Shown here piece after piece: positions 22,735-60,820 of a DNA stretch of 64,000 nt. The stretch lies in assembly GCA_043228905.1 (NCBI GenBank), contig JBHGNT010000016.1:7874001-7938000 (forward strand), read 5' to 3'. The notes below the pieces were generated by a model. It had not been told where the DNA came from. It was given only the letters and a program-made list of their open reading frames with translations, and ran no database searches. The position numbers and the translations under genes were made by a program. Numbering within the stretch: the first letter of the stretch is position 1; each line of letters starts with the position of its first letter. The stretch is from Azolla caroliniana (taxonomy: Eukaryota > Plantae > Polypodiophyta).

Positions 22735-23744
22735 CAGGAAATGGAAATGATATTATATTATGAGAAAACAAGGTTACAAAGAGTAGGCTAAGGGCTAAAG
22801 ACTGGTGTTGAACCGAATGAGTTGTGATAAATGTATAGACACCTATTTATAGATCCTTATGAAGTATTCTAGAATGTTCTAGAATATTTTAGATATCTAA
22901 GATAATAAATATAATCATGAAATATTCAAGAATGTTCTAGAATAATCTAGAATGTTCTAGAATAATCTAGAATGTTCTAGAATATTCCAAATATCTTGTA
23001 ATAAATAAAATTATAATTATTATAACTACACATCATATATGTTAATTTAATGGTTAAAGGTTCAACACACAGACCAAGAAGTTGTGGGTTCGACTCCTAA
23101 TAAGCCAAAATGTATGTCTTCATGATATTATCTCCCCTCTTCAACGACGACTTCCATGAGTCAGAATACAAGATTTTGGACTTGGATTATGGGGATATTT
23201 GTTGTGAAATGCAACAACCATGTCGGAAGCATTAGCAAGATGCTCGGCAAGCTCCCATGTTCGATCATTAGGTGTATAACCTAACCAATCAACCAAATAA
23301 TATAGTTTGTTGCGGATGATCTTGGAGTCGAGAATGGCAACAACCTCACATTCAGAGCCATCAGAAACTTTGATTGGAGGTGGGGGTGGTGTAAGACGAC
23401 CCGAAATAGAGCTTGGTGTGTAGGGCTCCAAAAGTGAGACATGGAAGACTGGGTGAAGATGCATATCAGGAGGAAGATCAAGGTGAAATGTCACATCATT
23501 GATCCTACTACAAATCACATATGGACTGAAACGTGGATAATCTAGTTTGTAGCAAGGTTGGGTGGTTTTAATGCTACCTTATAAGAACCATACTCGATCG
23601 CCTACTTGAAACGTAGTCGATGAATCACACCGATGACGGTCAACAACCTTCTTGTGAGTGGTTTGAGCATCACCTAAATGGTGCAAAAGTATATCCTGAA
23701 CTTCTTGGAGTTGGGTGAGCCAATCTTTAGCAGCCAGGTTTGTC

Positions 23745-24806
23745 GAGAAGGAGCATCGACTGTAAGTCGAAAAATGAGGGCGTATTCTCCCTTGTACAAA
23801 CCGCAATCCGGAAAGCTCCAAACTTGGACGCCAGGCCTCCAAGACAGACATGCACCATCCGTCTTCCTCTACGGTGACGTTAATAGAGGCAAGCGCGTCA
23901 CAGATCCCTTTGATCCGGGCTGTGTAATCTGCCACCGACATGTTCTTCTGTCGAACATTGCTCAACTCCTGTCTGAGTTGCAGCTTCCGGGCAGTGGTGC
24001 TTGCGACGAAGACCTTTTTCAAGTTTCCCCAAGCATCCTTCGGTGTCTTGGCGTCACGGATATGGCTGAGCAACTGGTCACCGACACTGGACGCGAAGCA
24101 GTACATCACCATGCTTGCCGCCTGTTCCCACACTAGGAAGTCCTTGTGTGTCGTCTCCGGTGCTGAATCGTTCACTCCGTCGACATAACTCCAGTAGCCA
24201 TGCCCAAGCAAGTACTGGTGCATCTTGTATGACCAAGATGCATAGTTGGTTTTGTCGAGCTTCTCCACCGGGAGCGACGTAGCCATACCTCTGTCCATTT
24301 CTCCTTTTGTGTCTGTTTTCCGATCTGTTAGGGTTTCCTTCACAAGCGTAGATGTCTGCAACAGAGGTTCTCAACCCACGCGCTCTAATACCATGTGAAA
24401 GATAGCTTGCGGAAGCGTTAGAAAGAACAATACACAAAGAGAGAGAGAGAGAGAGAGAGTAGGACACACTATTTTTCAAAATTATATGAATACTCTGTGT
24501 TCTCTCTCTTCTGTATCTATAACGCACTCATCAACGTTATTTATACAAGTCCACACGGGACTGTTAGAAGTACGGTGTACTTCAATGCTCACACGAGCGT
24601 CTAACACTAACTACGAGACTATAACTGCCTAGTAGTCTAACCTATACTAGGCTTCATGTTACGGATTGGATCCGTCATACCGGCTCCCCAGCTCACCGGT
24701 CCTTACTGCTTACCGGCTCGGTTGCTCACCGGCATACCGATTCATCTCACTTACCAGCTCAGGCTTATTCAGCTGATCCGGCTCCGGTTGAGCTTGCCGC
24801 TCAACA
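23745..24806 (-). mobile_element. Truncated Copia C: LTR (24394-24806), PBS and 5' gag, fused by deletion to the T1 integrase remnant
   Basis: LTR TGTTGA...TTTCACA, PBS tggtattagagcg (24381-24393), gag LPVEKLDKTNYASWSYKMHQYL...AWGNLKKVF. Confidence 0.85.
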
Positions 24807-27755: not shown

Positions 27756-29376
27756 ACGTCTTCTACGACCAAAATTGGCCCATGAGACAAATGGTTTACA
27801 ACAAAAAATGGGATATTTACCCATTCATCGAAAGTAAAAAATAAAAATAAAAATAGAGTTTTAAGCTAAATAGTTCTAGTAAAATAAAATAACAAACATG
27901 TTCTACAATGAAAATGATGTTATACTAGGCCTAATTTCATTTCCATCCAAGTCTCTCGAAGAGAAGCGGGAGGTCAAAGGGTTTTGATGTGGATGTGGCA
28001 TGTGGCCCCAATGTAAAAGGTACCCCAACCATAGCTTCTAGTCAACGTTGCTCACGTTCCCTTATCTTCTTAATCCTTTCTACTCTGTGTCGACTTGTTT
28101 TGAAGCCCAAGATCCGAGGGCATTTGGTTGTTCTTTGCATTTCGGCTTCCTCAAGAGAGAGGCTGAGTGGCGTAAGTGTATCCACATTCATCGTCTCCCC
28201 TTGTTCCTGAAAAATTACATTGGTTACAAGTTGATGAATAGTAAAAGGGTTATGGTTTGTAATTTATTCTCCCTATGTTGTTTTAGCTCTAAGATATACC
28301 TACCTAGTCTCTTTACATCCGGGGTATCTAATAGTTTGGAGAGGGTGGGAGAGGGTCCTAATATGTCTTGGTATTCCACTCGTATCTCGGCATAAGTTGG
28401 GCACTTGCATGTGAAGTGATACTCATCCTCTATCTCTATGTGGCACAACCTACATAGCCTTTCCTCCCTAGGGACTCTATTAGCCCGCCCATTCTCAATC
28501 TCAAGTTGGTGAGATGATATCCTAAGTTGTCCAATGGTCACCCTTCGTGCATTTGATAAGAACGTATCTAGATATCTTGGTCGTGTAATAAAACCTAACT
28601 GAGAGAATTGCAAGAAGTGTTCCTTATAGTACAATATTTTAGATGGGAGTGGCTCTCGTGGGGTGATCCATTTATATTGAGTGTAAATTTTCCATATTTC
28701 TTGGCATATCACTTTATTATGGTCTTCATGAGATATTAGAGTCTGGTTAGTCCCATGGTTGTACTTAAGGGGGGGTAAGTTATTAATGTCTATGCTGTTT
28801 GCAAGTAACCAACTCACCACAGTGCTATACCAAGAGCTAGTGTCTCCAGACGCATGTAGGGATCGAGATTCCTCAAAGGGTCAACATGATATCCTATATT
28901 GTGGTTGGCTATGTATCCGATGAATAAAAACTACCACTTGAAACAATGCTTCTACTAACATCAGGGCATATTGAACTCTGCTTTAATAATGTCATGTGGT
29001 ATTGTCGATTTGCTTCAGAGTTGACGTGATAACATCGTCACCAAAGGTCTCTCTAATTGCGTCCACATGAAAGATGGTAGACCTAGTGTCATAACTAGAC
29101 TCGAACCCATAACCTTTTGTTACACGGGTCGAGACTTTACCATTAGGTTATGAGTTGTAATTTGAAGGATATTATTTTCATTTAGGTTTTATTAGGAAAT
29201 TGATGTATATTCCAGATTTCTCTGGAACATTCTAGAAACTTCAGGAGTATTCCTGAAGACACTATAAAAGGAGGCACAAGGCATTAGTTTGAACCAAATC
29301 GGTTCTACGCCAGTCTTAAGCCTTCTAACTACTGTTGTATATCTTCCGTCATATAATACATATATCTTTCGCATCA

Positions 29377-29420
<44 letters not shown>

Positions 29421-29641
29421 ACTCATTCCTTCTCTCAAAGTTCGACACCTCTCATAGTACTAATCCTTCTCTGTCTTAGTACTATTCCCCAACAATAGTA
29501 CTAATCCTTCTTTTAGTACTAATTCCTTCTCTGCCTTAATAGAGTTCCTGACAGTTTGAACCGATTTTTCCTACTAGTCTCCCTCTTCCTTCTGTCTCTC
29601 TCCTTTCCTACTAGTCTCTTATTTCCCTTTTCCTTCATCCC

Positions 29642-30811
29642 ATGACCACCGTTAGCGCTGAAGAGTATCAATCCGTTTTCTCGGAATTTCAATGCTTGAA
29701 AGAGAAGTTTCATGCTTTGGAACAAGAAAATCAACGCTTGTTGGGGGATCTTCAGCAAATTTCCTTAGAAAAGCAGCAAACGCAACAACAGCATGGGGAA
29801 CTTGCGTTACGCGTGCAACAACTCGAAGCAACCATCGTAGCAATGCAACAACAAGGGCACGGAGCACAAGGGATTCATAAAGAACCCAAGATTGGCCTTC
29901 CCACGAAGTTCGATGGAACGCGATCGCAGTTTAGAGGGTTTCTTAACCAGGTACGGTTAGTTATTCAAATGCATCCGTCCCGATATCCCACCGATGCATC
30001 ACGAGTGGGTTTAGTAGGCACGTTGTTAACTGGCTCAGCATTAGCATGGTTCGCTCCGCTACTAGAAAAGGAATCTCCAGTACTAAATAATTTTGAAGAA
30101 TTCATAAGTGAGTTTAAAGCATGTTTTGGAGATATTGACAACATAAGGACTGCAATCAACAAAATCCGGCGATTACGCCAAGGTGACCGTCCAGCCTCCG
30201 CATATGCTGCAGATTTCCGCCTACTCGCCGCCGATATCCCCTGGGATGATCAAGCATTGATGGAGCAGTTCCGCTATGGTCTACGCAACGATGTCAAGGA
30301 TTTACTCTTGACTTTCCCTGAAGAGCCAAAATCATTAACAGAAGCAATCAGTCGAGCGGTCAGATGTGACAACCGCCTCTTCGAGCGACGTTCGGAACGA
30401 CAATTTCAGATGCCGAGGGCAAGATCCGAGCCTACCTATGCCTCAATGGTAGCGAAACCTTTTCAAAGGGAGTCACATAATGCGCCTCCAGTAAGTACTC
30501 CAACTCCAATGGAAATTGACACTACACGTCGTCGTGGGCCGCTATCGGAGGAGGAAAAGCAACGACGCCGAACAAACCGATTATGCCTTTATTGCGGTGG
30601 ACCAGGGCATATCGCGATAAACTGTCCCCATAGACCAAGAAGGCAGGTAAACCAAGTCATTGTTAGTTCTGACTATACTAAACCCGAGTCTATGTCAGTA
30701 GGAATCTCTGATAATCCTCATAGTCATAATAGTCCTAATAGTACTAATAGCCCGAATCTCGCAAACAAATTTGATGTCCTTAGCCAATTAGAAGAAGAGT
30801 TAAACGACTAA
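29642..30811 (+). CDS. gag: T2 Gag (coiled coil, retrotransposon gag domain, CCHC knuckle)
   Basis: 389 aa; PTKFDG, LTGSALAWF, PTPMEID, CLYCGGPGHIAINC. Confidence 0.93.
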   Translation: MTTVSAEEYQSVFSEFQCLKEKFHALEQENQRLLGDLQQISLEKQQTQQQHGELALRVQQLEATIVAMQQQGHGAQGIHKEPKIGLPTKFDGTRSQFRGFLNQVRLVIQMHPSRYPTDASRVGLVGTLLTGSALAWFAPLLEKESPVLNNFEEFISEFKACFGDIDNIRTAINKIRRLRQGDRPASAYAADFRLLAADIPWDDQALMEQFRYGLRNDVKDLLLTFPEEPKSLTEAISRAVRCDNRLFERRSERQFQMPRARSEPTYASMVAKPFQRESHNAPPVSTPTPMEIDTTRRRGPLSEEEKQRRRTNRLCLYCGGPGHIAINCPHRPRRQVNQVIVSSDYTKPESMSVGISDNPHSHNSPNSTNSPNLANKFDVLSQLEEELND

Positions 30812-30850
30812 GTCCAGCCAAAATAGGAGCCGTTTGGTTGGACAGCCCTA
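30799..30850 (+). promoter_or_regulatory. Putative -1 ribosomal frameshift signal
   Basis: G_TTA_AAC (30799-30805) in gag frame, 6-nt spacer, 11-bp stem gtccagccaaa/tttggttggac; the -1 frame is open into pol. Confidence 0.7.
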
Positions 30851-33800
30851 GATCTGTGCAGCCCATTAGTGGTTCCATTCCCTCTAAGCAAGTTAGTGAT
30901 GTGTTCGTAGTCCAAGTAGCAGTTAGTACTAAAAGTACCCCTCCAGTACATACCTTAGCCCTTCTAGATTCCGGAGCTAATTCTTGCTTCATGGATAGGA
31001 ATTTTGCCCGAGCTCATCAGATATCTCTCAGAAAGCTCCCATGTCCAGCCTCAGTAGTAGTCATTGATGGTCGTCCCATTGCTTCTGGTAATATCATAGA
31101 AGAGTCGGAACCCGTTAATATTGTCCTAGATAACTTAACATGTGTAGTATCATTTAATATTATTAGTATTCCAGAACATCCCATAGTTTTAGGATTACCA
31201 TGGTTCGAGTTACATGACCCAGACATAGATTGGAGGACAAGGGAAATCCGGTTGCGACAAACCCAAGGATCTACCCAGAAGGTTGCAACCATTACGCTAC
31301 GACAGTTGCGTGAGGAAGGGCGCAAGGAGGAAATGTTTCTCTTTGCAATATCAGTACAACCCTCCAGCACCACCAAAGAGGAGTCCACCGTTCAACTTCC
31401 CGAGAAGTATCGTCAGTATGCTGATGTGTTCGATAAAGTACAAGCCAACACACTTCCTCATCATCGGCCGTACGACTGCGCCATCGACTTACAACCGGGA
31501 AAAGAGCCGCCATGGGGGCCGATCTACAATTTGTCACCAACCGAGCTAGAAGTCCTTCGAGCCTATATAGAGGAGAATTTGGAGAACGGTTTCATTCGGC
31601 ATTCGAAATCTCCAGCCGGCGCACCCATTTTCTTCGTCAAGAAAAAAGATGGCTCGCTTCGACTCGTTGTAGATTACCGTGGCTTGAATAAGGTCACAGT
31701 AAGAAATAGGTATGCTCTTCCCCTTATCTCAAGTCTTTTAGAACGGATCAACGGTGCCAGGTTCTTCACGAAGATCGACTTACGAGGAGCCTATAACCTC
31801 GTACGGATCCGACCAGGAGATGAATGGAAGACCGCGTTTCGCACCAGATATGGGCACTTCGAGTATACGGTCATGCCGTTCGGACTCACTAATGCGCCGG
31901 CAGTCTTCCAGCACATGGCGAATGATATATTTCGAGACCTCTTGGATGATTTTTTGATCATCTATTTGGATGATCTACTGGTTTATTCAAAGACCCAAGA
32001 AGAACATGATTCTCATGTACTATTAGTACTAAAACGACTTCGAGAACATGGTCTGTATGCAAAGTTAGAGAAATGTAGTTTCGGGTGCAACCAAGTGGAG
32101 TTTCTCGGCTATGTCATCTCCTCAGAAGGCATATCTATGGACCCAGCCAAGGTCAAAATGGTGATAGAATGGCACACTCCGCGTTCGGTGCGGGATGTGC
32201 AATGCTTCCTAGGCTTTGCAAATTTCTACCGGAAGTTCATACAAAATTACTCAAAAATTGTGCTGCCTCTCACACAGCTCACCAGGAAGGGACAATCATT
32301 CATTTGGTCTAAAGAGACGGACATGGCTTTCGAGAGTCTTAAGAAGGCGTTTACATCAGCTCCAATTTTAGGTCATGTGGATCCGGAAAAACCATTCATT
32401 ATCGAAGCTGATGCATCGGATTTCGCATTGGGGAGCATTCTGTCACAACAGGGTAACGACGAGAAGCTACATCCTGTGGCTTTCCACTCCCGTAAGTTTG
32501 ACGCCGCCGAAATCAACTACGAAATTCATGATAAAGAGTTATTAGCAATAGTTGATTCTTTTATGCAATGGAGGCATTTCCTGGAGGGATCTCCTCATCA
32601 GGTCACTGTATTCAGTGACCACAAGAACCTTGCCTACTTTCAAGATGCTCGTGTACTGAATCGACGTCAAGCTCGGTGGGCCCATTTCCTCACACGCTTC
32701 GACTTCAAAATTACATATCGTCCGGGGAAGCACCAAGGGAAGGCAGATGCATTATCACGGCGTTCGTATCTAACACCACGTCCCGGTGAGCCAGCTTTCG
32801 ATAACCAGAAGCAGGTAATCTTGGGTCCAGCACGACTGCAAGCAGCACAGATCTTTGACATGCCCGTGGATTCCGACATTACCAATACTATACGTGAGGA
32901 CTTGAAGACTGACGCTTTCGCCCAAGCTATACTAGCACAAATTGACCCCTCTCGAGCGTCATGTTCACAATCACAATCACCAGGTACGGATTATCGGCAA
33001 TTCAAATACTGTGATGGATTCCTCTTCTTTAAAGAACTTTTGTATGTTCCTAATGGTTCTTGCCGCCTTCGAGTAGTACAAAACTGCCATGACACATATA
33101 CAGCAGGACATTTTGGTAGTACTAAAACATTAGATTTAGTACAACGATCATTCTGGTGGCCCCGTATGCGACAATTTGTCGAAGATTTTGTTCGGACTTG
33201 CGATACATGCTGCAGAGCGAAAATGCCAAGACATCATCCATATGGTTTATTAGAACCATTACCAATTCCAAGCAAGCCATGGCAATCCATTGCTCTTGAC
33301 TTCATTACAGATCTTCCAGTCTCTAAGGGATTCAGTGCGATTCTCACAGTGGTGGATCGATATACGAAGATGGCTCATTTCTTACCATGTACTAAAGAAA
33401 TATCTAGTGAAGACACCGCCGAAATTGTCATGCGGGAAGTATGTCGGCATCATGGACTCCCTGATAATATCATCAGCGATCGTGGACCCCAGTTTGTGTC
33501 AAAATTCTGGAAGCACCTTTTTAAAATGCTGAAGGTCACTTGTAACCTCTCCTCCGGCTACCACCCACAAACCGACGGTCAAGCCGAACGAACAAATCAA
33601 ACACTGGAGCAGTATCTGCGGTGCTTTCTCAACTATCATCAGAATGACTGGGCATATATTCTTCCGTTCGCCGAATTTGCCTATAATAACGCTATCCACG
33701 CATCGACTAAAGTCACGCCATTCTACGCTTATACGGGATATCATCCCCGGTGGTGTGTCCTTGAAACCCCAGAAGTGTCCACAAATCCTTGCGCGGAGGA

Positions 33801-34392
33801 TCGTTTGGAGCGGTTACGCAAGATAGCGGATTTATCTACTCAACTCCAGCAAGCTCAACAATCACACAAGGACTACGCAGATCGTCATCGACTTCCATCC
33901 AGTTTTAACATTGGAGATCGGGTGTGGCTGCTACGACGACACATCAAGACTACTCGCCCATGTGAGAAGTTGGATTATCGACGATTAGGTCCTTTCCGTA
34001 TTATCGGGAAGATTAATGATGTCGCTTTTCGTCTCGAGCTACCTCCGCAACTTCGGATACACCCGGTGTTTCATAGTTCTCTCCTCGAACCCTATCACGA
34101 GAGCACTATCCCAGGACGTACTATACAACCTCCACCTCCTATCGAGCTCGAAGATGGACCTGAGTATGAGGTCGCTGCCATCCTCGATTCCAAGATTGTT
34201 CGCAACAAGCTCTACTATCTAGTCGATTGGCTAGGATATAGTCCCAGCGAGCGTACTTGGGAACCGATCGAGAATGTGACCAATGCTCGTGCTCTTCTAG
34301 AAGACTTCCATCGACGATATCCCGAGAAACCGGGTCCTCAATCCAAAACGACTCGTGAAACTCGTCGTTTTAAAGGGGGGATAGTGTCATAA
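30838..34392 (+). CDS. pol: T2 Pol (protease-RT-RNase H-integrase-chromodomain), in the -1 frame relative to gag
   Basis: LLDSGA, YLDD, EADASD, H..H/C..C, DRGPQF, TDGQAER, YEVAAIL..YLVDWLGY..TWEP; uninterrupted 1184 codons. Confidence 0.95.
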   Translation: MDSPRSVQPISGSIPSKQVSDVFVVQVAVSTKSTPPVHTLALLDSGANSCFMDRNFARAHQISLRKLPCPASVVVIDGRPIASGNIIEESEPVNIVLDNLTCVVSFNIISIPEHPIVLGLPWFELHDPDIDWRTREIRLRQTQGSTQKVATITLRQLREEGRKEEMFLFAISVQPSSTTKEESTVQLPEKYRQYADVFDKVQANTLPHHRPYDCAIDLQPGKEPPWGPIYNLSPTELEVLRAYIEENLENGFIRHSKSPAGAPIFFVKKKDGSLRLVVDYRGLNKVTVRNRYALPLISSLLERINGARFFTKIDLRGAYNLVRIRPGDEWKTAFRTRYGHFEYTVMPFGLTNAPAVFQHMANDIFRDLLDDFLIIYLDDLLVYSKTQEEHDSHVLLVLKRLREHGLYAKLEKCSFGCNQVEFLGYVISSEGISMDPAKVKMVIEWHTPRSVRDVQCFLGFANFYRKFIQNYSKIVLPLTQLTRKGQSFIWSKETDMAFESLKKAFTSAPILGHVDPEKPFIIEADASDFALGSILSQQGNDEKLHPVAFHSRKFDAAEINYEIHDKELLAIVDSFMQWRHFLEGSPHQVTVFSDHKNLAYFQDARVLNRRQARWAHFLTRFDFKITYRPGKHQGKADALSRRSYLTPRPGEPAFDNQKQVILGPARLQAAQIFDMPVDSDITNTIREDLKTDAFAQAILAQIDPSRASCSQSQSPGTDYRQFKYCDGFLFFKELLYVPNGSCRLRVVQNCHDTYTAGHFGSTKTLDLVQRSFWWPRMRQFVEDFVRTCDTCCRAKMPRHHPYGLLEPLPIPSKPWQSIALDFITDLPVSKGFSAILTVVDRYTKMAHFLPCTKEISSEDTAEIVMREVCRHHGLPDNIISDRGPQFVSKFWKHLFKMLKVTCNLSSGYHPQTDGQAERTNQTLEQYLRCFLNYHQNDWAYILPFAEFAYNNAIHASTKVTPFYAYTGYHPRWCVLETPEVSTNPCAEDRLERLRKIADLSTQLQQAQQSHKDYADRHRLPSSFNIGDRVWLLRRHIKTTRPCEKLDYRRLGPFRIIGKINDVAFRLELPPQLRIHPVFHSSLLEPYHESTIPGRTIQPPPPIELEDGPEYEVAAILDSKIVRNKLYYLVDWLGYSPSERTWEPIENVTNARALLEDFHRRYPEKPGPQSKTTRETRRFKGGIVS

Positions 34393-36669
34393 CTAGACTC
34401 GAACCCATAACCTTTCGTTACACGGGTCGAGACTTTACCATTAGGTTATGAGTTGTAATTTGAAGGATATTATTTTCATTTAGGTTTTATTAGGAAATTG
34501 ATGTATATTCCAGATTTCTCTGGAACATTCTAGAAACTTCAGGAGTATTCCTGAAGACACTATAAAAGGAGGCACAAGGCATTAGTTTGAACCAAATCGG
34601 TTCAACGCCAGTCTTAAGCCTTCTAACTACTGTTGTATATCTTCCGTCATATAATACATATATCTTTCGCATCATCATTCTCTCTCTCTCTCTCTCACTC
34701 ACTCATTCCTTCTCTCAAAGTTCGACACCTCTCATAGTACTAATCCTTCTCTGTCTTAGTACTATTCCCCAACAATAGTACTAATCCTTCTTTTAGTACT
34801 AATTCCTTCTCTGCCTTAATAGAGTTCCTGACACCTAGAGCCCATACTACTGATGCATACATGAGGGAAGGGGTCACTAATGAGTCGAAGAGCCATCCCT
34901 TACTCCGTGGCTCTTGAAAGTATGCATGGTGGCATTGTCTCTCTAAAAGTGAGAGGCATGCATACCCTCTCGTTAACCTATCTTTGGCTCTGCCTAGGTC
35001 ATTAGAATTTACATGAGTGAGCACTAAAAGTGACACCCAAGTATACATATGATCCAACTACCTCAACTAGATTATGAGAGAGGATTAGGTGACATTTACT
35101 CCTAACTCGGGACGATGTATGAAAGATAAGGACTTTAGTTCTCGTTAGATTCACTACCAGTCCTCATTGTGTACAAAAGTCATCTAGGGCATTAAGATGC
35201 TTTTGTAGGTCGTGTTCGACTCCGAGAGCAAGACAATGTCGTTTGTGTAGAGTAAGAGACTAACTTGCGTATCCCCAATAGCTACTCCCTTGCCTCCCTT
35301 ACGAGCAATAAAATCAGTGATCTCACCAATGTAGATCCCCAAAAAGAGTCGGTGATAGGGGGAAACCCTGTTTTACACCAATGGTGCTAGTGAAACAATT
35401 GGATAGGCCACTTGGCCATCTTATGCACCTAGAGACTTGCTTATATAGGGCATACATGGCCCAGATCATGGTCAATTGTGGTGGAAAACCCTCGGCGAGG
35501 GCGAAGTTGAAGATTAGAGTGAGAAAGGGGGCTAGGCACTCTCGAGCATATATGATGTGCTCAGCTTGCAATCCTGTGTGGTCCATGGATTTCCTATGTT
35601 TTAATTTTTTTATGACCTTCGTGACCCTAGAGGTCGTGAAAAGTGTCCCCATGTTAGGTCGGGGTGTGGAAGGCATTGGGATGGGTGGTTGGTTCGGGGT
35701 TTAGGCCAAAATTATTGTCTTCTAAGGCCAAAATTGGCCCATGAGACAATTGGTTTACAACAAAATGGGATATTTACCCATTCATTGAAAGTATAAAAGA
35801 AATAAAAATAAATAGAGCTTAAACTAAATAGTTCTAGTAAAATAACAAACATGTTCTACAATGAAATGGCTTTATATTAGACCTAGTTTCATCTCCATCC
35901 AAGTCTCTCGAAAAGAAGTAGGAGGTAAAAGGCTTTCAATGTGGATGTGCCCCCCCGTGGTCCCAATGTAGAAGGTACCCCAACCATAGCTTCTAGTCGG
36001 CGTAGCTCACGTTCTCTTTGTTGGGATTTCAGTCCCTCCGGATGGGATGTCCGGAGATGAATGACGGCAAGCCCGGTTACGGTTACGGAACCGGAGGATG
36101 AAGAGTACCCGGCATGAAGCCGGATGAAGAGTACCCGGTTACGGAACCGGATGAAGATACAGGCCCGGTGAGAGTACTCACCGGATGTGGGGACATATTT
36201 GTGAATATGTTTTCCAAGAGCCCTTTGAGGCTATATTTGTAAATAGCCTGAAAGTCATATGTGTATAAATATGACTTAGGGCAAACTGTTTAGCGCTGCT
36301 GTATGTTGTTGCTCATTTCTCTGTTTTCACTTAGTAGGAGCTAAGTGAGCAGCCGAGAGAGAGAGAGAGTGAGACGAAGAGGTCGTTGCCTCTGTGTATT
36401 ACCGCCGCCTGTGGCGAAGACAGTGAGCTCAAGGTTGTTGCCTTGTAGCTTCACCATTGTACATCTCTGTTTGTAGTGATAGTTGGAGTTTGAGGACTCC
36501 CGTGGTTTTTCCCACTTAGGGTTTTCCACGTAAAATATCCTATGTACCCTTCTCTCTATTGTCTTCGTGCATTTTGTATTTCCTGTTTTCTGTGAGTTGA
36601 TCCTATTTCTCGGTTGTGGCCGAGTACTGTGTTTAACAAAGTGGTATCAGAGCGACGGTAACACAGAAA

Positions 36670-43700: not shown

Positions 43701-44910
43701 ATCGATCGGCTTCTCCAAAAGCGATGAGGACCATTGTCTCTTTACCACCACAGCTCAAGATGGATCACCCATCTTCCTCATCATTTACGTGGACGACATG
43801 CTAATTTCTGGACGCCACGCGGGCGAACTTGCCGATCTCATTCGGCAACTGCGGTTGAAGTTTGCCATGAAGGACCTCGGTCCGGCACGACACATACTCG
43901 GCATGAAGATTAGTCGGCATCGCGATAAACGACATCTTTTTTTGTCTCAGACCGACTATATCGGACGTGTCTTGGAACGCTTCAACATGCAATCAGCCAA
44001 ATCTGCTTCAACCCCGCTCCCCATGAATCTTCGGCTCTCTCAGCGCGACTGCCCGACATCCGGTTCGGAGGGGGAAGATATGAAGTCGGTACCGTATGCA
44101 CCGACAGTCGGCTCCCTTATGTACCTGATGGTCGCGACACGGCCTGATATCTCTCATGCCGTAGGAGTCGTTAGCAGATTTATGCACAATCCTGGCCGAT
44201 CGCATTGGAACGCAGTCAAGCATGTGTTCAGATATCTGGCTGCGTTCCAATGCGATCGGCCAGGATTGTGCATAAATCTGCTAACGACTCCTACGGCATG
44301 AGAGATATCAGGCCGTGTCGCGACCATCAGGTACATAAGGGAGCCGACTGCCGGTGCATACGGTGTGTTCAGATATCTGGCTGGCACAAAAGACCACGGC
44401 ATTCTTTTCGGTCCGAACCGAACCTCAGGCGTAGTCGGTTACACCGACTCGGATTTCGCCGGCTGTATAGACAGTCGGAAATCAACAACCGGATACTGCT
44501 TCAAATTCGGCAATGGAGCAATTTCGTGGAAGTCGAAACTTCAGGAGTGCACAGCGACCTCAACGACCGAAGCAGAATATGTAGCTGCGTCCGACGCTGC
44601 AAAAGAAGCTTTGTGGCTCGGTCGGCTGGCGCACACGTTTCGGCAAGTCGACCATGACTCGGCCCCAGTTGTCTATAGCGACAGTCAAGGTGCTGTTGCC
44701 CTGTCGAAAAATCCGGTTCACCACAACGCCTCCAAACATATCGACGTTCGATATCACTTCGTTCGGGACTGCGTCATTTCAGGGAAAATCGGTCTAGAGA
44801 AAATATCCACAACCGACAATGTCGCAGATGGAATGACCAAGTGTCTTTCGGCAGACCGCTTTCGGTCTCTTCGCCATCAGATGGGCGTAACGACAAACCA
44901 GTCCGGTTAG
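40738..44910 (+). pseudogene. Copia B gag-pol, intact except a 141-bp fold-back insertion carrying a stop at 44299
   Basis: CNYCKKPGHIKADC, WLLDSGAS, DNGGEF, YVDD; RNase H resumes in the same frame at 44365. Confidence 0.93.
44091..44364. repeat. 125-bp inverted duplication (arms 44091-44215 and 44240-44364) with a 20-bp direct duplication (44223-44242 and 44364-44383)
   Basis: The minus-strand ORF 44154-44402 reproduces PYAP.VGSLMYLMVATRPDISHAVGVVSRFMHNPGRSHWNA. Confidence 0.95.
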
Positions 44911-47332: not shown

Positions 47333-50300
47333 TATTATGGAGCACTGGAAAGAGAGAGAAAGAATTCTAGACAAGAGGTACTTAGTTCAATAAGAAGAAA
47401 GGAGCATTTACTATATTAAAGAGAAGATATTACATCGGGGGTATCCCCTTAATTTCCCAAAAACCAGCCCCCCTTCTCTATGCACACAACTTCCTTAAAT
47501 ACCCATGGACTCATTTACTTCACCACCAATTTCTCTAACTACTTGACCATTAATTCCTCTAGTTACTTGACCACTAATTTCTCTAGTTGATCCCTCCTCT
47601 AATTTCTCTACTTCTAACTACTCCATAACATAACACTCTCCCATGAGGTGCAGAGTTTCACCCTCAAAACTAAAACACTAGTACAATAACATGACTTGCT
47701 AAGTCCATAAGTAAATGAAAGGAATGAAGGACAATGGCAAAGGTGGTCTTACCATACTAATATAGTAGGCAATGTCTAAAACCTTGCCATTGTAGCACTA
47801 ATTAGAGCTAGGGTACCTGAACAAGAATGAGGGATCCAAACGAAACAAACTTTCTTCAGAGATCCATGTGGCTTCCGAAAGTGGTCGCCCTTTCCACTTG
47901 ATCAAAAATTTCGTGTTTCCATTGTGCACTTGTTTTAAGATTGCTTCAGGTTTTTCAGCTTCCTCACTTAGATTAGTCTTCTGACTCCAATGTTTATCTG
48001 CATGAAATCTTTTAAGCAAACTTACATGAAATGTATCATGCACTTTGACAGAAATAGGTAATTTGAGCTTGTAAGTGACTCCATTAAAACTTTGTAGCAC
48101 TTCATATGGCCCATAATAACGATGGTTAAATTTAGGTGAGAGTCCTCCAGGTAAAGGCCAATGAACGGCACTAACGAGGACCAAGTCGCCTTTGAAAAAT
48201 TCGATGTGTTGCCGTTTTTTGTTAGCTGTCTGAACCATTCGTTCCTTTGATTCTTGTAATCCTTGTTGTGCAACCCGCATTGTTGCTTGCCAATCTGCTA
48301 GAAAAAGATCGACATCAGGCTCTTTAATTTTATCTCGAACAGCATGAGAGACCAAAGCCAATGGAGTAAGAACTTGCTTCCCTGTAGCTACTTCAAAAGG
48401 AGAAAAACCAGTGGCAGAATGTTTAGAGGAGTTATAACAAAATTCCAGCATATCGATATGATCCGTCCAATCTTTTTGATCCGCCTGCACATAACAACGA
48501 ATGTAGTCTTCAAGACTCTGATTTACCCTTTCAGTTTGGCCATCAGTTTGGGGATGAGCCGTCGAAGACATTCGAAGTTGTGTGTCCAGCAATTTGAATA
48601 GTTCTTGCCAAAATCGACTAGTAAAACACGGATCCCTATCTGATACGATAGCCGCAGGCATGCCATGATATTTAAAGATATGTTTGAAGAACAATTTGGC
48701 TACTTGGAGAGCTGTGAGGGGTGGTTTAGTTGGTACAAAGTGAGCTTGTTTAGAGAAATAGTCGATGACCACCATGATCGCATTATAACCTCTTGACATG
48801 GGCAAGTCCACTATGAAATCCATACTCACCACATCCCATGGTTGAGCGGGTATTGGCATGGGTTGTAGCAATCCAAATGGTCGTCCACGCCGAGCTTTGA
48901 CTTGTTGGCATGTCACACAGGATTGGATGTAGTCTTTTACATCCAACTCCATATGTGGCTACAAAAAATATTGCCAGATATTGGTGAGTGTCCGATGAAT
49001 ACCACCATGCCCTGCCATCTTACAATCATGTGCTTCTTGCAAAATTAGTGCCTTAATTTCCTTTATATTAGGTACAAACCACTTACCATGTACCATTAAT
49101 AGACCTTGTTGCATTTTAAGTGACCCATGGGCCGCACGTTGCATTTCCATATCGGAAATCAATTGTTGCGTGTAAGGATCATGTTATTGAGCTGTTCAAA
49201 TGTCTTGTAGTAAAGAAGAATTAGAGATTACCGAAATGGTACAAGCACGAGGCATTCGACTTAAAACATCTGGCATAGTATTAAGAGCACCACTTTTATG
49301 GTTGATGCAGAAATCAAATTCTGCCAAAAAATCTTGCCAACGAGCTGGTTTAGGGGACAACTTCAGTTGGGACTGAAAATACTGCAAGGATATGTTATCA
49401 GTGAATACTTTAGTAAACTTATCTTGGACATAATGACGCCATTTGCGTAAGGCATAGACGATGGCAAGCATTTCTTTTTCATGAGTAGGCCACCTAACTT
49501 CAATACATGAAAATTTCTTGGATTCATAAGCAACTGGATGTCCATCCTGTATCAACACAGCACCATAAGCCACATAAGAAGCATTTGTATGGATTTCAAA
49601 TGGTTTAGTAAAATCTGGTAACTTAAGCACTGGTTGGGAACACACTGCTTCTTTGAGTTTTTCGAAAGCATCTTGTTCTAGTGTTGTCCATTTAAAACTT
49701 GTTTTAGCTTTAGTTAGGTTAGTTAGGGGGGTTGCAATCGCACTAAAATGCTTGATGAATTTACACACATATTGCACGAAACCTACAAATTGTTGGAATT
49801 CTATGGTTTTAGTCGGGATTGGCTATCTTCGAACAACATCCACCTTGCTTGTATCCATGCGAAGGCCATGTTTCCCTACCCGGAAACCTAAGAAGTTAAT
49901 ATCTTGTACTGCAAACTCACATTTTTTGGGGTTAGCATACAATTTGTTTTCTCGCAGTATATGTAACACCTTCTTAACATGTAACACGTGCTCATCCAAT
50001 GTTTTGCTATAGATGAGCAAATCATCTATGTATACGATGACAAACTCATCAAGGAAAGCACGAAATAGATCATTGCCCAAGTGGCTAAATGTTCCTAGTG
50101 CACCAGTGAGCCCAAAACTCATAACCAGCCATTCATAACTGCCATACCTTGTCCAAAAAGCTGTTTTCTCAATGTCACCTTCAACAACTCGGATTTGGTG
50201 GTATCCCGACCTCAAGTTGATGCGAGTAAAAAATTATGCCCTTGCCAATTGATCTAGTAAATCGTCAATGACTGGCAATGGATATTTACCTTTGATAGTT

Positions 50301-53006
50301 ATCTTGTTGAGTGCTCAATAGTCCATACACATTCACATTGTTCCATCCTTTTTTGCAACAAATATAATGGGTGCCCCGTATGGCGAATTGCTCGGGCAGA
50401 TGAAACCAGATGTCTCCAGCTTGGCCAATGCTTCTTTAATTCTGCTACTTGAGTTGCATTCAACTTGTATGGAGCTTTAGCTGGTGGTGTGCTTCCCGGT
50501 AGTATGTTGATTTTGTGATCAATGGCTCTTTTAGGGGGTAGTCCAGGAGGTAACCTGGCTGTTAGCACATCATTAAATTTAGTTATTAGGTGTTGAATTA
50601 TTGGATTACTTTTGTGTCCTTCCAATGTTGTATTTGCTTGATGGTGGACAATGGTTGTACATAAAAATAATTGCCCTCCTTTTTTAAGTGAATGATTAGC
50701 CACTTTGGCGCTACATAATGCTAAAGGAGGACTGGATTGCTTACTTGATTGCACTTGCTTATTTGTGGAGCGATGAAGACTTACCACCACCCCATTGTGT
50801 CCATCCAAATTGTCCAATAATACTTTGTCTATTCTCCTTCCGAAATGTGCGATAAGATACTTATCTGCCCAATCCAATCCTAATATGACATCAAATCCTG
50901 TCATTGGAACTACTAGAAAATTTACCTTTCCTTTCCATGTTTCCGCTTCCATAGGAATATCCAACGCCAGGGATCCAATATTGGTTGAGCCTTGCACAAA
51001 GCTTATGGATATGTCCCTTAATGGCATAGGTTTCAATCCGAATTTAGTGATGCACTCGGGAGTGATAAAGTTATGCGTTGCTCCACTATCAACCATAGCA
51101 TTGCAAGCATGACCATTGATCTTGGTTGCCAAGTACAAATGATCAATGTGAGAGACACCCACAACAAAACAAAGGGGGTTTACCTTTGTTGCTCCTGCCG
51201 TGACCTCCATTAACCCATCCTCCACCTCATCAAGAATGTTGAGAGGTTCATAGTTGTTGTTGTCCAATCCCTCCTCAAGATCCCTAACATTGGCTTGGGC
51301 CACCACGACTTTTGGTGATTTCCTTCGGGGACATTCATATGCTAAGTGTGGACTGTCACATTCAAAACAACCCCTTCGAAGGTTTGGGAGCCTTTCCCCA
51401 TTTGATGAGGATGCCATGCTTTTTCGTGCTCCATTACTACCCCCCCAATTATCTTGGGACATAGCAAGTGATCTGTTGAAGACTCTTTGCCCTTGACTAC
51501 TAAAATCGCGTCTCATAGGGAAGTTGACGGACGATTTCATAGCTCGAAATGGCTGTTGAAGCTCTTCAAAATCACCAATTCGTTCAGCTAGTTGAACCGC
51601 CATCTCCAAATTCATCGGTTGTTGCTTTTCAATCTCCATCCTGATTTTGGATCTTAAACCAAACAAAAAACCATGAATTTTAGTCACTTCATGAAAATGC
51701 GGGAGTTGAAGCATGAGTTGTCTATACTTGTCGACATAAGTCGACAAACTCCCCTCTCCTTGCCTTAATTTCCTCCATGCATCCATCAAACGAGTTGTTT
51801 CATTTGGTGGGATAAAATATTGCCGCATTCGAGTTGTGAAGGCTTGCCATCCCATGAACTGGTATGTGTTCTCTCCGACCAGATACCAATTTAAGGCCGT
51901 CCCTTCTAAAAAGTTTGTTGCAGATATGGTCCACTGGTCTTGAGATATACCACTTTGCCGAAGAAAGTGTTCTACCTCATGAACCCACCTATTCAAGGCT
52001 AGTGATTTTCGTTCGCCTCAATACGTCCGAGGTTTGATTGGTGTGAACCTTCCGCCTCCCCCTTCTATGCCCGTATTTGCATTTTTGAGAAGGAGATCCA
52101 CTAAAATTTCTAATTGATCCTTTGGTGGGGCTTGGTTGTGGCCAACATCCGTCTCCACGAGTCTTCTAGTTGTCTCTTCTCGTGACTCTTGCCCTTCTAC
52201 TTCCAACGCTTCATGGAGAGATCCAAATTCGATCCCTGCTGCTTCTTCCAAATCATGTGAGGTTTGCCCTCTTGGTTGTTCCATTTGATCAATACTATGC
52301 TCTAATATTTCTCTTGATTCAAATTCATCCACAATTTCCATATTTCCCCTTCGTCGAAGAGGGCATGGTTCCCTACCCATTCTCCTTCTATTATTCAACA
52401 TATTCTCAGAAATTTCTTACCTGAGGGTATGGTCGGTCAAGTAGGTATGTTGTCGGTCGACACTTCTTATTCGATTAGCCGTATTTCTTGTGGCTATGAT
52501 AGGATGTTCAACTCAGCTGTTGCAGACAAAAAAAATAGAAATACTAATAATTTCAGCCACCAATGTAGCCTCCACTCGATTTCTAACCACCACTTCCACT
52601 CTTGGCTGCCACAATTCGAGTTGTTGTTTGCTTCTCTCTTGGTTGCTAGATCTTTCCACGCATCTACACCTTCTCGGTGATATGCAGAACCTGCTCTGAT
52701 ACCAAGTATTACGGAGCACTGGAAAGAGAGAGAAAGAATTCTAGACAAGAGGTACTTAGTTCAATAAGAAGAAAGGAGCATTTACTATATTAAAGAGAAG
52801 ATATTACATTGGGGGTATCCCCCTAATTTCCCAAAAACCAGCCCCCCTTCTCTATGCACACAACTTCCTTAAATACCCCTAGACTCAACTACTTCACCAC
52901 CAATTTCTCTAACTACTTGACCATTAATTCCTCTAGTTACTTGACCACTAATTTCTCTAGTTGATCCCGCCTCTAATTTCTCTACTTTTTACTCCATAAC
53001 ATAACA
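47333..53006 (-). mobile_element. Chromoviral Ty3/Gypsy element with tRNA-iMet PBS (decayed), inserted in the T1 5' LTR
   Basis: ~300-bp LTRs 47333-47635 and 52707-53006, TSD gatat/aatat, PBS tggtatcagagc. Gag (LEGTALNW, CFECDSPHLAYEC), MVDSGA, YIDD, RNase H, integrase and C-terminal chromodomain (FLIKWKG..ATW) in broken ORFs 47798-52401. Confidence 0.93.
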
Positions 53007-53365
53007 AATATTATATTATGAGAAAACAAGGTTACAAAGAGTAGGCTAAGGGCTAAAAACTGGTGTTGAACCGAATGAGTTGTGATGAATGTATAGGCAC
53101 CTATTTATAGATCCTTATGGAGTATTCTAGAATGTTCTAGAATATTTTAGATATCTAAGATAATAAATATAATCATGAAATATTCAAGAATGTTCTAGAA
53201 TAATCTAGAATGTTCTAGAATATTCCAAATATCTTGTACTAACTAAAAATACAATTATTATAACTACACATCATATATGCTATTACAATGGTTAAAGGTT
53301 CAACACACAGACCAAGAAGTTGTGGGTTCGACTCTTGATAAGCCAAAATGTATGTCTTTATGACA

Positions 53366-57859: not shown

Positions 57860-58640
57860 CTAGTAGTAGGATGATAAATGTGGGTGACTTTTTGCACATT
57901 GATGGAGTTTGCTTCAATAAGTTGGTTCATTGTTCTATTAGATATACTCACTTATTTGCCAACATAGGATGTCAATCCTCATTGGATGATGCTTGAACAT
58001 TTAGAAATCTTGAAAAATCCTCTTGCAACAAAAAGATCATTAGGCATTGCAAGTTGTATTATCAAAATCTTAGTCCATACGTTGTCGTGATGTGGTGTGC
58101 TCATGGGAAGAAATTACTCAAGCATGGCGAGAAGGTCACATGCCAAGAGGAGGCACAAGATAACAAAAAGATATACCTCAAGAAATTACTCTTGAAACAA
58201 AATGGGCAAGGGGGAGGCAATATGAGTGAATGGAGATGCTCATCAACATTTTGCTCTCTCTAGGCTCCCTAGGAGGATAAGTATTTTCTCTAGCTTGAGA
58301 AAATACACGAATGTGCTCATGTGAGTACACAACAAAAAATGTACACTTTCTTGTTTGAGCTTGGAAGCACTTATGCTTTTCTTGCGTGAATTTGGAGACA
58401 AGGTTCGACAAAGTGTTCCAATGCACAAGACATTGGATACAAACCCACAACCTACACTCTTGTCACATGCTCATAAGGCCCACAAATTGGATCAAGAAGC
58501 TCGTTGTCGTGATGTGGTGTGCCGAGTGTGGGAAAAACGCATAAACAAGGGCAAAAGAGTGCAGTGGAAGTGCAGGCAAAAAGCTAGAGAAAGGAGGGAG
58601 GTAGGTGCCAAGGAGGAGAAAATGTGTGAGTGAGAGAGAG

Positions 58641-58816
58641 CCTAGATGGATGTAGCTCAGTTGGTAAGGTTGCCCAATGGATACCAGGTGGTCATGGGTT
58701 CAACCCCTACATTCCACAATGGCATCTAGTGAATTAAGAGATATCTATATGGAGTATAGAGGTGAGTAAAAGAAATTGGATTTTGAACCCAAGAGTGTAA
58801 CAACTTACCAATAGCG
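58641..58816. other. tRNA-derived (SINE-like) sequence: A/B boxes on plus (58653-58706) facing a shorter degenerate copy on minus (58778-58815)
   Basis: TAGCTCAGTTGGTA...GGGTTCAACCCC; minus strand TATTGGTAAG...GGGTTCAAAATCC; no good anticodon arm. Confidence 0.55.
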
Positions 58817-58999
58817 AAAGCTAATTATGATAGAGAGAGAGAGAGAGACAGAATATGCAAACGTGGGGAAGAGAGAGATAAAATTTAAATGCAATAAAAT
58901 ATTAAAATGTGACCTCCTCTCCCCTTGTTTCCTATAAAAAGGAGGAGGGGCTCATTTTGGCTTCTTCACCATTTTTGGGGAGAAAACTCTTGTTCTTCC

Positions 59000-59645
59000 T
59001 TAGCTCTTACCTTTTCATCCCCTCTTCGTCGTTCAATGCTCTTCTTCTTTGCGTTAGTGTGTTCGTGCTCGCTTTCTTCATCGTGTGGTGCTCATCTTCT
59101 TTGTGTTGGTGTTGGTGTTGGTGTTCACGTGCTTGTGTTCTCATGTGCTTGTGTGCTTGCGAGTTTGTGGTGCTCGTGCTTGTGCTCGTCTTCTTCGTCA
59201 TTCCATGCTCAAGTGTTGGCGTGTACGTGAGTTCATGGTTGTGGTCGTGATTTGTCGTTTGCAATCGTCGGTGTGCCCGTGTGCTAGGTGTTCCTTGGTC
59301 GCGGTGTTTATGTGTTCATTCGACTATCGTTCACGAGTCGGTGTGTTCGTGATGCTCATGTTTGTCGAGTTCATAGTGTTCAGGGTTTGCCATCCGTGTG
59401 GTTGTGCTCACCGAATTCGTCATTTGGTGTTCATGTTCGCGTGCCCGTGTGCATGCGAGTTCACGATGCTCGTCTTCTTGGTGTTCGAGTGCTCGTGCTC
59501 ATCTTTTTTATCATTTTGCGCTCGTGGGTTGGCGTCATCATGTTGGTGTGCTTGCATTCGGTGGTTGCGATTGTTGCGTGACACCATCTTTTTTCTGTAC
59601 TACAAACTCCTCCATTTTCGATAACCATCACTCGTGCTTGAGCTC
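59000..59645. repeat. Low-complexity degenerate GTGTTC/GTGCTC-rich tract downstream of a TATA-like cctataaaaagg (58931)
   Basis: Directly visible; produces spurious Cys/Val-rich ORFs; probably the leader or LTR of an unassigned repeat. Confidence 0.55.
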
Positions 59646-60820
59646 AAGTTTTATGCTAAGAATGCATCATTGTACTCATGTTGTGGCTCTTAAGTCTTAT
59701 AAAAAGTTTGTTTGATACATCCTCGCCGTGGTCCTATCACGTTTGTTTGTCTTATCACCGTGTTGATCTTTTGCCGAGCTTTATTCCTCATCTCGTGCTC
59801 ACGTGAGCCTTTTGTGAACCCTTAACTCACTTAGGATCGTTCGGTAATAAAAACGACTAGGAGGGCAAACCTCGACGAGCGAAAGCTCGACGAGACTCGA
59901 CAAAGAGCCTATCGAGGTTAAGTGTGGTACCGTCTTCTACTTGCCAATCCCCTCCGACTCCCTTGTCCGCAACCCCCATAGTCCCGCCCGAACAACACCC
60001 ACGCAAAACTTCGTGACACCGTCTAGAAGAGGTGTCATCACAGTTATCATCTCTTGTTACTCTCCATTGACAAAACATATTCCTTGGTTTAAGTTCCCAA
60101 TGGTCTCCCTTTGCTTTCACATGCACATATGTTAATTTTGTGATACCAAAGATAAAGGTTAGATGAAAAAATTGATGAGTAGGTTCATTAATGGTCTATA
60201 CAAACTTGCTAAGTATCTATTGTACCTAGCATGACTTATGAAGACATTGCCATGTACATTGCCACTAAGACAAAAAGAATGGAAAGAAGTTGGTTCTAGA
60301 GCTTTAGAGCTAATGCACCCCCAATGCGACAACCTTTTTGTAAATAGGATATAGAAGTCACTTTTATCGCATTCAATAGTTATCGTGCAACAAAAGGTGA
60401 TTGCGAAATACTAAATGCATGTATGTGATCAATCAAAGTACATACAATGAAGAGAGAATAAAGTAGAGAGAGGGGGGGAATAAGATAGAATAACAAAGTA
60501 TGTTGGAGAAGGACAAACAATCTTTTTTATGTATCTTTTTGCTCTGATATCTGTTTCCTTCGTTCTTTGGTTAATTTCTAAGCTTACATAGAGATTTCTA
60601 AGGAATAATTGGACATCTTGTTACAAGCATAATCTTTATTCAGTTGTATGCATCCCATGGTCGCATGCTTTGTTTCCTTCTCCAATAAAGTTATTTTTAA
60701 GTGAGAACTCCCATATATATTTTCGTCATTAGGATGGTAGTGTTGTTATGAACATGAATGCATCTTTGAATTCATTAAAGGATGCATCCATGGTTGAGTT
60801 AGTAACGAGTCCAAGAGGGG

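Follow-up and report, generated by a model that had tools for sequence, protein, structure and literature searches.

We found A and B boxes of tRNA type, facing outward, at the U3 edge of intact chromoviruses in the 64-kb stretch of DNA analysed here (the window), which is a pile of nested LTR retrotransposons. The cassette that these boxes form is antisense to gag-pol in all four families that carry it, namely T2 and T1 in the window and L001 and L002 among their metagenome relatives, and the conservation of its boxes makes it probable that the cassette is a selected TFIIIC-type site.

Structure of T2 and position of the cassette

T2 (29087-34833, + strand) is an intact chromovirus-type Ty3/gypsy element bounded by a 5-bp TSD (CCTAG), with a 5' LTR at 29087-29553 and a 3' LTR at 34385-34833 that show 2 mismatches across their first 294 nt. 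The gag frame (29615-30811, +; capsid and zinc knuckle) and the pol frame (30784-34392, +; PR, RT, RNase H, integrase, SH3 and chromodomain) are both open, with Pfam domains in Ty3/gypsy order and the chromodomain at the pol C-terminus. The translated chromodomain shows aromatic Y, W and Y residues at what we take to be the aromatic cage positions. The pol stop codon falls within the 3' LTR, and the polypurine tract (PPT) is located at 34372-34384 (+). Just upstream of the PPT, within the pol coding tail, there is a short inverted repeat (34345-34370), with similar sequence in L001.

The PBS (29554-29567, +) is the complement of the element's own LTR and not of a tRNA 3' end. It pairs with LTR positions 209-220, 32 nt below the TATA box (29263-29268, +) of the element's Pol II promoter, so that the predicted self-primer (29295-29306, +) lies at the start of R; the complementarity is 12/12 using the 3' LTR copy and 10 contiguous positions using the 5' LTR copy. 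With the self-priming site there, the Pol II start falls at about LTR position 209 and U3 covers about positions 1-208 (29087-29294). A role of the cassette as RT primer was rejected as superfluous, since T2 already has a self-priming site. The self-primer at the start of R (29295-29310, and the T1 equivalents) resembles a sense box B, reading GGTTCAAC-C in T1 and in the T2 3' LTR. T2 has no tRNA primer site and in this respect shows the self-priming by which Tcn1 is recognised in the available text of PMC6317226, which also records Tcn1-like features from mosses and club-mosses, so that the window probably comes from a non-seed plant; our Tcn1-like assignment is based on domain and priming features, and neither the tree nor the database matches contain a named Tcn1 reference.

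In the 5' LTR, the tRNA-derived cassette occupies 29087-29157 (-), equivalent to virtual tRNA positions 1-72, and faces the flanking host DNA, with box A (D-loop; TAACCTAATGG) at 29140-29150 (-) and box B (T-loop; GGTTCGAGTC) at 29098-29107 (-). The copy in the 3' LTR (34385-34455, -; box A 34448-34438 and box B 34405-34396, -) faces back across the PPT into the end of pol. The antisense, tRNA-spaced A and B boxes that a preliminary description of this DNA located on the U3 edge are thus present in both T2 LTRs, and its placement of the cassette within U3, facing outward, agrees with the U3 boundary given by the self-priming site. A strict pattern of D-loop core and B box at tRNA spacing matched four times in the window compared with 0.04 times per dinucleotide shuffle (maximum 1 in 100 shuffles), the four matches being two copies each from two related families.

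The cassette in T1 and in other relatives

T1 is a T2-related family located on the - strand, with 55% amino-acid identity to T2 in the integrase tail and 80% in a piece of RT. The two LTRs had been described as otherwise dissimilar, which is wrong; they are homologous, with 72-75% DNA identity across ~200 nt of the HSE/TATA/R region. This homology rules out a convergent origin of the T1 and T2 cassettes, which are therefore common by descent, and the two families do not count as independent cases. The T1a 3' LTR carries its cassette at 23036-23107 (+, the element being on -; LTR edge 23127), with a weak box A at 23043-23053 (+) and box B at 23087-23096 (+). The T1b LTR piece (53008-53365), interrupted by a nested Gypsy element at 47333-53006, carries it at 53274-53345 (+), with box A at 53281-53291 and box B at 53325-53334. 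Both T1 LTR pieces that keep the U3 edge therefore have A and B boxes, and the antisense orientation reported for T1 holds, with + strand boxes at 23043-23096 and 53281-53334 in an element that runs on the - strand. A profile made without T1 recovered the T1 cassettes with E values of 0.001-0.005 (0.001 for T1a). The T1a pol end adjoins a same-strand Copia gag fragment (23123-24400), an arrangement of nested insertion plus deletion. Elsewhere in the window, a 128-nt inverted repeat (44091-44364; 98% complementary, 18-nt loop) lies at the end of a Copia pol frame and is a possible source of hairpin RNA.

To place these families, 165 loci were gathered by protein similarity and not by motif; metagenome relatives were 80 of 399, so that the clade, with its four cassette families, is thinly sampled. 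L001, a metagenome locus with 74-78% identity to T2, has a cassette with a full box A, and L002, also from a metagenome and 58% identical to T2, has one with a canonical T-loop. The distance from G18 to the B box is 34 nt in T2, 35 nt in T1, 37 nt in L001 and 35 nt in L002; about 34-36 nt is the class I tRNA register. This box spacing of 34-37 nt is kept in the four families while the distance to the LTR end ranges from 21 to 41 nt. The cassette had been placed at the same LTR position across families, which does not hold, as box B starts at position 12 in T2, 17 in L001, 30 in L002 and 32 in T1.

A quick tree was built from 53 rows, comprising loci with at least 150 bits and at least 125 residues, proteins P0001-P0023 and three elements of the window, with SH-aLRT as its only support measure. 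T1 and T2/L001 form two sister groups inside a 20-row clade (SH-aLRT 92), and L002 is sister to L003 (SH-aLRT 99), a locus that has neither the cassette nor a heat-shock element (HSE); about 22 proteins of the T1/T2 clade are protein sequences only, without LTR DNA. From their sequences, T1, T2 and L001 share one capture of the cassette, while the cassette of L002 is possibly either a strongly diverged copy or a second capture. An nhmmer profile of the other four copies missed the L002 cassette.

The 163 other loci gave 74 distinct callable LTR starts, the rest being left out because they were duplicates, had no callable PPT, matched over a short length or supplied too little sequence. By a relaxed pattern, the cassette was absent from all 74; this count uses the relaxed pattern because the nhmmer profile is too narrow for an L002-type cassette when L002 is left out. 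Viral contigs and contigs of prokaryote genomes yielded no close relative. Many prokaryote genome records (within L087-L165) contain eukaryotic Gypsy contigs, which looks like assembly contamination.

Fit to a type 2 Pol III promoter

The cassette is not a tRNA gene. ARAGORN found no cloverleaf, even at relaxed thresholds for T1, T2 and L001, and Rfam found no tRNA; relaxed ARAGORN called L002 alone of the four cassettes, with no type assigned. The acceptor stem has only 2-4 of 7 positions paired and the anticodon stem 1 of 5. On these grounds the tRNA gene reading was dropped. The closing stem TCATAAC/GTTATGA named in the preliminary description is indeed present in T2 (29089-29095/29147-29153) but lies off the acceptor-stem register and overlaps box A. 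It is no common feature, being absent from the T1, L001 and L002 cassettes, and two of its positions (34446 and 34451) vary among T2 relatives; as an acceptor stem it was consequently rejected. Poorly paired stems beside conserved boxes suggest that promoter positions have been kept and RNA structure has not.

The box B consensus is matched in T1, T2 and L002, and the single L001 copy has a C-to-T change at a CpG. Box A is full in L001 and in sibling subfamilies of T2, has one mismatch in T2 (tRNA position 10) and has lost its 5' half in T1, where this half reads TATTAY family-wide and not TRGY. At position 10 of T2, the consensus G makes up 23-76% of the related contig depth (place 34446 in the 3' LTR). 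At about -35 to -20 of the T2 cassette (29177-29192, -) there is an AT-rich stretch (81% AT versus 65% in U3), which we tentatively predict as a TFIIIB site; across the families with the cassette, the AT fraction at -35 to -20 is 0.81-1.00 versus 0.62-0.75 for U3. CAA at -10 to -1, described as typical of plant tRNA genes in the available text of PMC3082873, was found in one of the four cassette families. No terminator of T4 or longer occurs within the LTRs of the cassette families; a T4 run lies 36-46 nt into the internal region at all four 3' LTRs (T2, T1a, L001 and L002). Four X18 contigs cover the T1 cassette; their RNA origin is a guess, and strand and transcription are not readable from contigs.

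At 58646-58715 (+) there is another tRNA/SINE-like head; its box A is canonical, and ARAGORN calls it at the relaxed threshold only. The head is in sense orientation, with a TATA ~220 nt downstream of it at 58933, and the surrounding 1.5 kb (about 58506-60018) may be an LTR-like stretch.

Conservation of the boxes

Between families, the box cores are identical at 15/16 positions for T2-T1 and at 13/16 for both T2-L002 and T1-L002, whereas the other tRNA-register positions agree at 16/35, 10/35 and 11/35, respectively. Fourfold sites of pol agree at 19/54 (0.35), 20/66 (0.30) and 12/47 (0.26) for the same pairs and are saturated. Box cores differ from fourfold sites with binomial P values of 2e-6 to 4e-5; because the boxes serve as anchors of the alignment, it is biased in their favour. 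Box cores kept at 13-15/16 while synonymous pol sites have become saturated (26-35%) point to selection.

The claim that the boxes are kept while the spacer diverges is borne out between families (13-15/16 versus 10-16/35) but not within T1. Among the T1 variants listed (40 of 45 rows), 4/11 positions of box A, 4/11 of box B and 6/33 of the spacer vary; the box B changes affect its two CpG bases and positions 59 and 62, and G53, T54, T55, A58 and C61 have no variant among those rows. The T1 U3 (~300 nt) retains one CpG, that of box B, where ~5 are expected. At the T2 3' end, in contigs of four runs, the variants among the 40 of 92 rows listed affect the spacer and positions 10 and 12 of box A, the position 10 change of T2 relatives going towards the consensus; no box B variant occurs among those 40 rows, in a box that lies near the conserved terminus. 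Six loose ends at T2 box A, among the 24 listed (with 705 more), all have A boxes of the TRGTNTRATGG type (6/6) with different flanks. A fair reading of these comparisons is an old box-specific constraint that would be strongest on box B and weakened on the T1 box A.

The heat-shock promoter beside the cassette

T2 contains a perfect four-unit HSE (two overlapping three-unit matches) at 29225-29242 (+), repeated in the 3' LTR at 34523-34540. The T1a LTR has an array of seven perfect three-unit matches (22867-22987, -) and the T1b LTR one of six (53125-53225, -). All 17 perfect three-unit HSE matches in the window are in T1 and T2 LTRs, just upstream of TATA, and the four other LTR families of the window have none; from these arrays, both Gypsy elements are predicted to be heat-inducible. 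In P. patens, heat induces RLG2 and represses RLG1 (PMC7466625), and RLG2-like families would be expected to carry both cassette and HSE. L002 has three HSE matches, and an HSE occurs in 4 of the 74 other callable LTR starts. The first match begins at LTR position 137-141 in T2, T1 and L002, and an AT-rich gap of 47-68 nt separates the cassette from the HSE array, giving the order terminus, box B, box A, AT-rich gap, HSE array, TATA and start. The link between cassette and HSE comprises three families with both and one with neither; the L001 sequence ends before the HSE region.

Discussion

We tentatively favour the explanation that occupancy of the cassette by TFIIIC and Pol III keeps the heat-shock promoter open in heterochromatin, as a barrier acting in cis. 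Chromodomain integrases are thought to insert into heterochromatin. A tRNA- or SINE-derived A/B box, presumably captured, sits at the outer U3 edge of these autonomous, self-priming chromoviruses, where TFIIIC would bind box B and position TFIIIB on the AT-rich gap. The complex at the 5' LTR would separate the flanking heterochromatin from the HSE array, which would thereby stay accessible to heat-shock factor. The copy in the 3' LTR would start transcription back into the element, where the T4 run, 36-46 nt outside the LTR, would terminate this by-product at 111-142 nt. A barrier role seems the most economical: the element itself would gain from it, no RNA structure is required, a weak box A would suffice, and it suits a chromodomain element that lands in heterochromatin.

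Besides the conserved box cores, the constant box spacing, the loss of stem pairing, the lone CpG of the T1 U3, the A boxes of the loose ends at T2 and the absence of the cassette from the 74 other LTR starts, the joint presence of cassette and HSE in T1, T2 and L002 and their joint absence in L003 count for this barrier, as does the requirement of fission yeast tDNA barriers for TFIIIC and Pol III in either orientation (available text of PMC2040200). Counting against it are box variation within T1 as frequent as that of the neighbouring positions, the degraded T1 box A, the presence of CAA in only one of four families and the fact that L003 and 73 other relatives manage without the cassette. 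Pol III occupancy of the 3' LTR would, moreover, obstruct the element's own Pol II transcript, a cost at that end; in the available texts, yeast tDNAs stop Pol II readthrough (PMC4228148) and mouse B2 SINE boundaries reduced neighbouring expression (PMC8136502). In the literature searched, we found no report of a TFIIIC barrier in any plant. It is conceivable, though somewhat doubtful, that the back-to-back Pol III and heat-shock Pol II promoters constitute a portable barrier or heat-released switch, possibly captured twice.

The location of the T4 runs could also be read as the purpose of the 3' LTR cassette, which would then make a 111-142 nt antisense Pol III RNA over the U3 edge, the PPT and the end of pol that pairs with genomic RNA and tunes plus-strand priming or copy number. 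In T2, the first T4 downstream of the 3' LTR cassette (34345-34348, -) would end a 111-nt RNA, and that of T1a is at 23174-23177 (+). The run lies beyond the LTR edge by 36 nt in T2, 46 nt in T1a, 36 nt in L001 and 41 nt in L002, while only 13 of the 74 other loci have a matching A4 run (Fisher P 0.008, a post hoc value from three independent families), and foamy viruses express Pol III RNAs from U3 (available text of PMC7693620). However, the run is coding and contains a Lys codon, and protein constraint may account for it; no terminator is built into the 5' LTR copy or occurs within 80 nt of its flank, no shared fold of the cassettes is evident, and such an RNA would be expected to feed host silencing. 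We judge this reading unlikely. Rather unlikely as well is a damper, in which the Pol III complex would, under normal conditions, hold down the neighbouring Pol II promoter and stop readthrough until heat releases it and HSF activates, giving a tight switch. Cassette and HSE are present or absent together, 47-68 nt apart, which suits this proposal, but heat loss of Pol III complexes in the host is an assumption for which Maf1 biology is the basis. Yeast offers a parallel in tRNA-gene-mediated silencing and in the tDNA roadblock to Pol II (available text of PMC4228148).

It is improbable that the cassette is a neutral relic, that is, a SINE or tRNA fragment without a role, copied along ever since its insertion into an ancestral LTR. 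T1, T2 and L001 do have it by descent, T1 shows no excess conservation of the boxes and a decayed box A, and L003 lacks the cassette; further, if LTRs have been exchanged they may be younger than pol, and T2-T1 non-box positions agree at 46% versus 35% for fourfold sites. Drift alone, however, sits poorly with box cores at 13-15/16 across saturated lineages, with constant spacing, with the lone CpG retained in the T1 U3 and with the better A boxes of sibling subfamilies. More improbable still is selection of the motifs for another use, whether as a landing pad for Pol III-targeting elements, as a signal near the LTR end for integrase or strand transfer, or as a pairing partner of the self-primer. 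In T2, only 11 nt separate box B from the terminus, and the self-primer region, GGTTCAAC in T1 and T2, is itself box B-like. Against a signal of this kind, the distance to the terminus differs between families by 20 nt, unlike an att signal, and a D-loop motif at tRNA spacing is explained by none of these uses. As for a landing pad, T1 LTRs contain two nested insertions, at ~170 and ~270 nt upstream of the cassette; these are not Ty3-like distances and lend the idea no support, two insertions in the window being too few for exclusion.

The favoured barrier bears on a problem of chromodomain retrotransposons, which presumably insert into heterochromatin and still need transcription; a TFIIIC site at the LTR edge would offer a concrete answer. 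If true, it would be a transposon-encoded anti-silencing device built from a host promoter and the first plant test case for TFIIIC barriers, and thousands of LTR copies would act as mobile Pol III-factor sites that shape chromatin and the heat response in a non-seed plant genome.

Several known systems resemble parts of this arrangement. T2 resembles the Tcn1 clade in its aromatic-cage chromodomain, self-priming, 5-bp TSD, ~450-bp LTR and length of 5.7 kb (PMC6317226, PMC2864245), and the LTR descriptions in the available portions of those two papers mention no tRNA-like or Pol III element. More broadly, the literature searched, which was mostly non-subscription and partly in excerpt (including PMC2864245, PMC6317226, PMC7466625, PMC11656987, PMC3082873 and PMC13578239), contained no antisense tRNA-type promoter in an autonomous plant LTR. 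In yeast tDNA and B-box barriers and in B2 SINE boundaries, A/B boxes likewise lie by a Pol II promoter or chromatin edge (PMC2040200, PMC8136502, PMC4228148, from the text available); those, however, are host loci or SINEs with experimental proof, while the cassette is a putative barrier built into the LTR of a plant retrotransposon. Foamy viruses are likewise autonomous LTR retroelements with a U3 Pol III unit beside the Pol II promoter, but their units are self-contained hairpin miRNA precursors whose RNA and host targets have been demonstrated (PMC7693620, as available). The cassette here is tRNA-derived, with no shared hairpin and no terminator inside the LTR.

Among plant LTRs, Cassandra TRIMs also carry a captured Pol III promoter, but theirs is a 5S-derived type 1 promoter in a non-autonomous element and drives the element's own RNA, which is not so here (PMC10886601). 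Closest are Helenus and TRIMp3, in whose LTRs a tRNA-derived sequence has retained boxes A and B but forms no functional cloverleaf (Kojima 2024, PMC10886601). For Helenus, an origin by SINE insertion has been proposed, and the accessible text of that paper gives one plant case, Selaginella. Helenus elements are non-coding and 311-1263 bp long, while T2 is autonomous, with gag and pol open over 5.7 kb, and their tRNA part is in sense in one plant and three wasp LTRs (PMC10886601), unlike the cassette here, which is antisense and so cannot transcribe its own element. Unlike Helenus, T2 also keeps a Pol II HSE/TATA promoter and self-primes. The Helenus paper argues that autonomous partners, which must use Pol II, would probably not have such LTR sequence in common with them; it also notes a resemblance to part of a tRNA in many Repbase LTRs, of which only short ones were analysed (PMC10886601, in the text available). 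Autonomous LTRs with tRNA-derived parts may therefore sit unreported in Repbase. The preliminary description had suggested an undescribed LTR design; since tRNA-derived LTR promoters are already described in Helenus, the cassette is better regarded as a variant of them, one that extends such promoters from non-coding TRIMs to autonomous elements, where they would do a different job.
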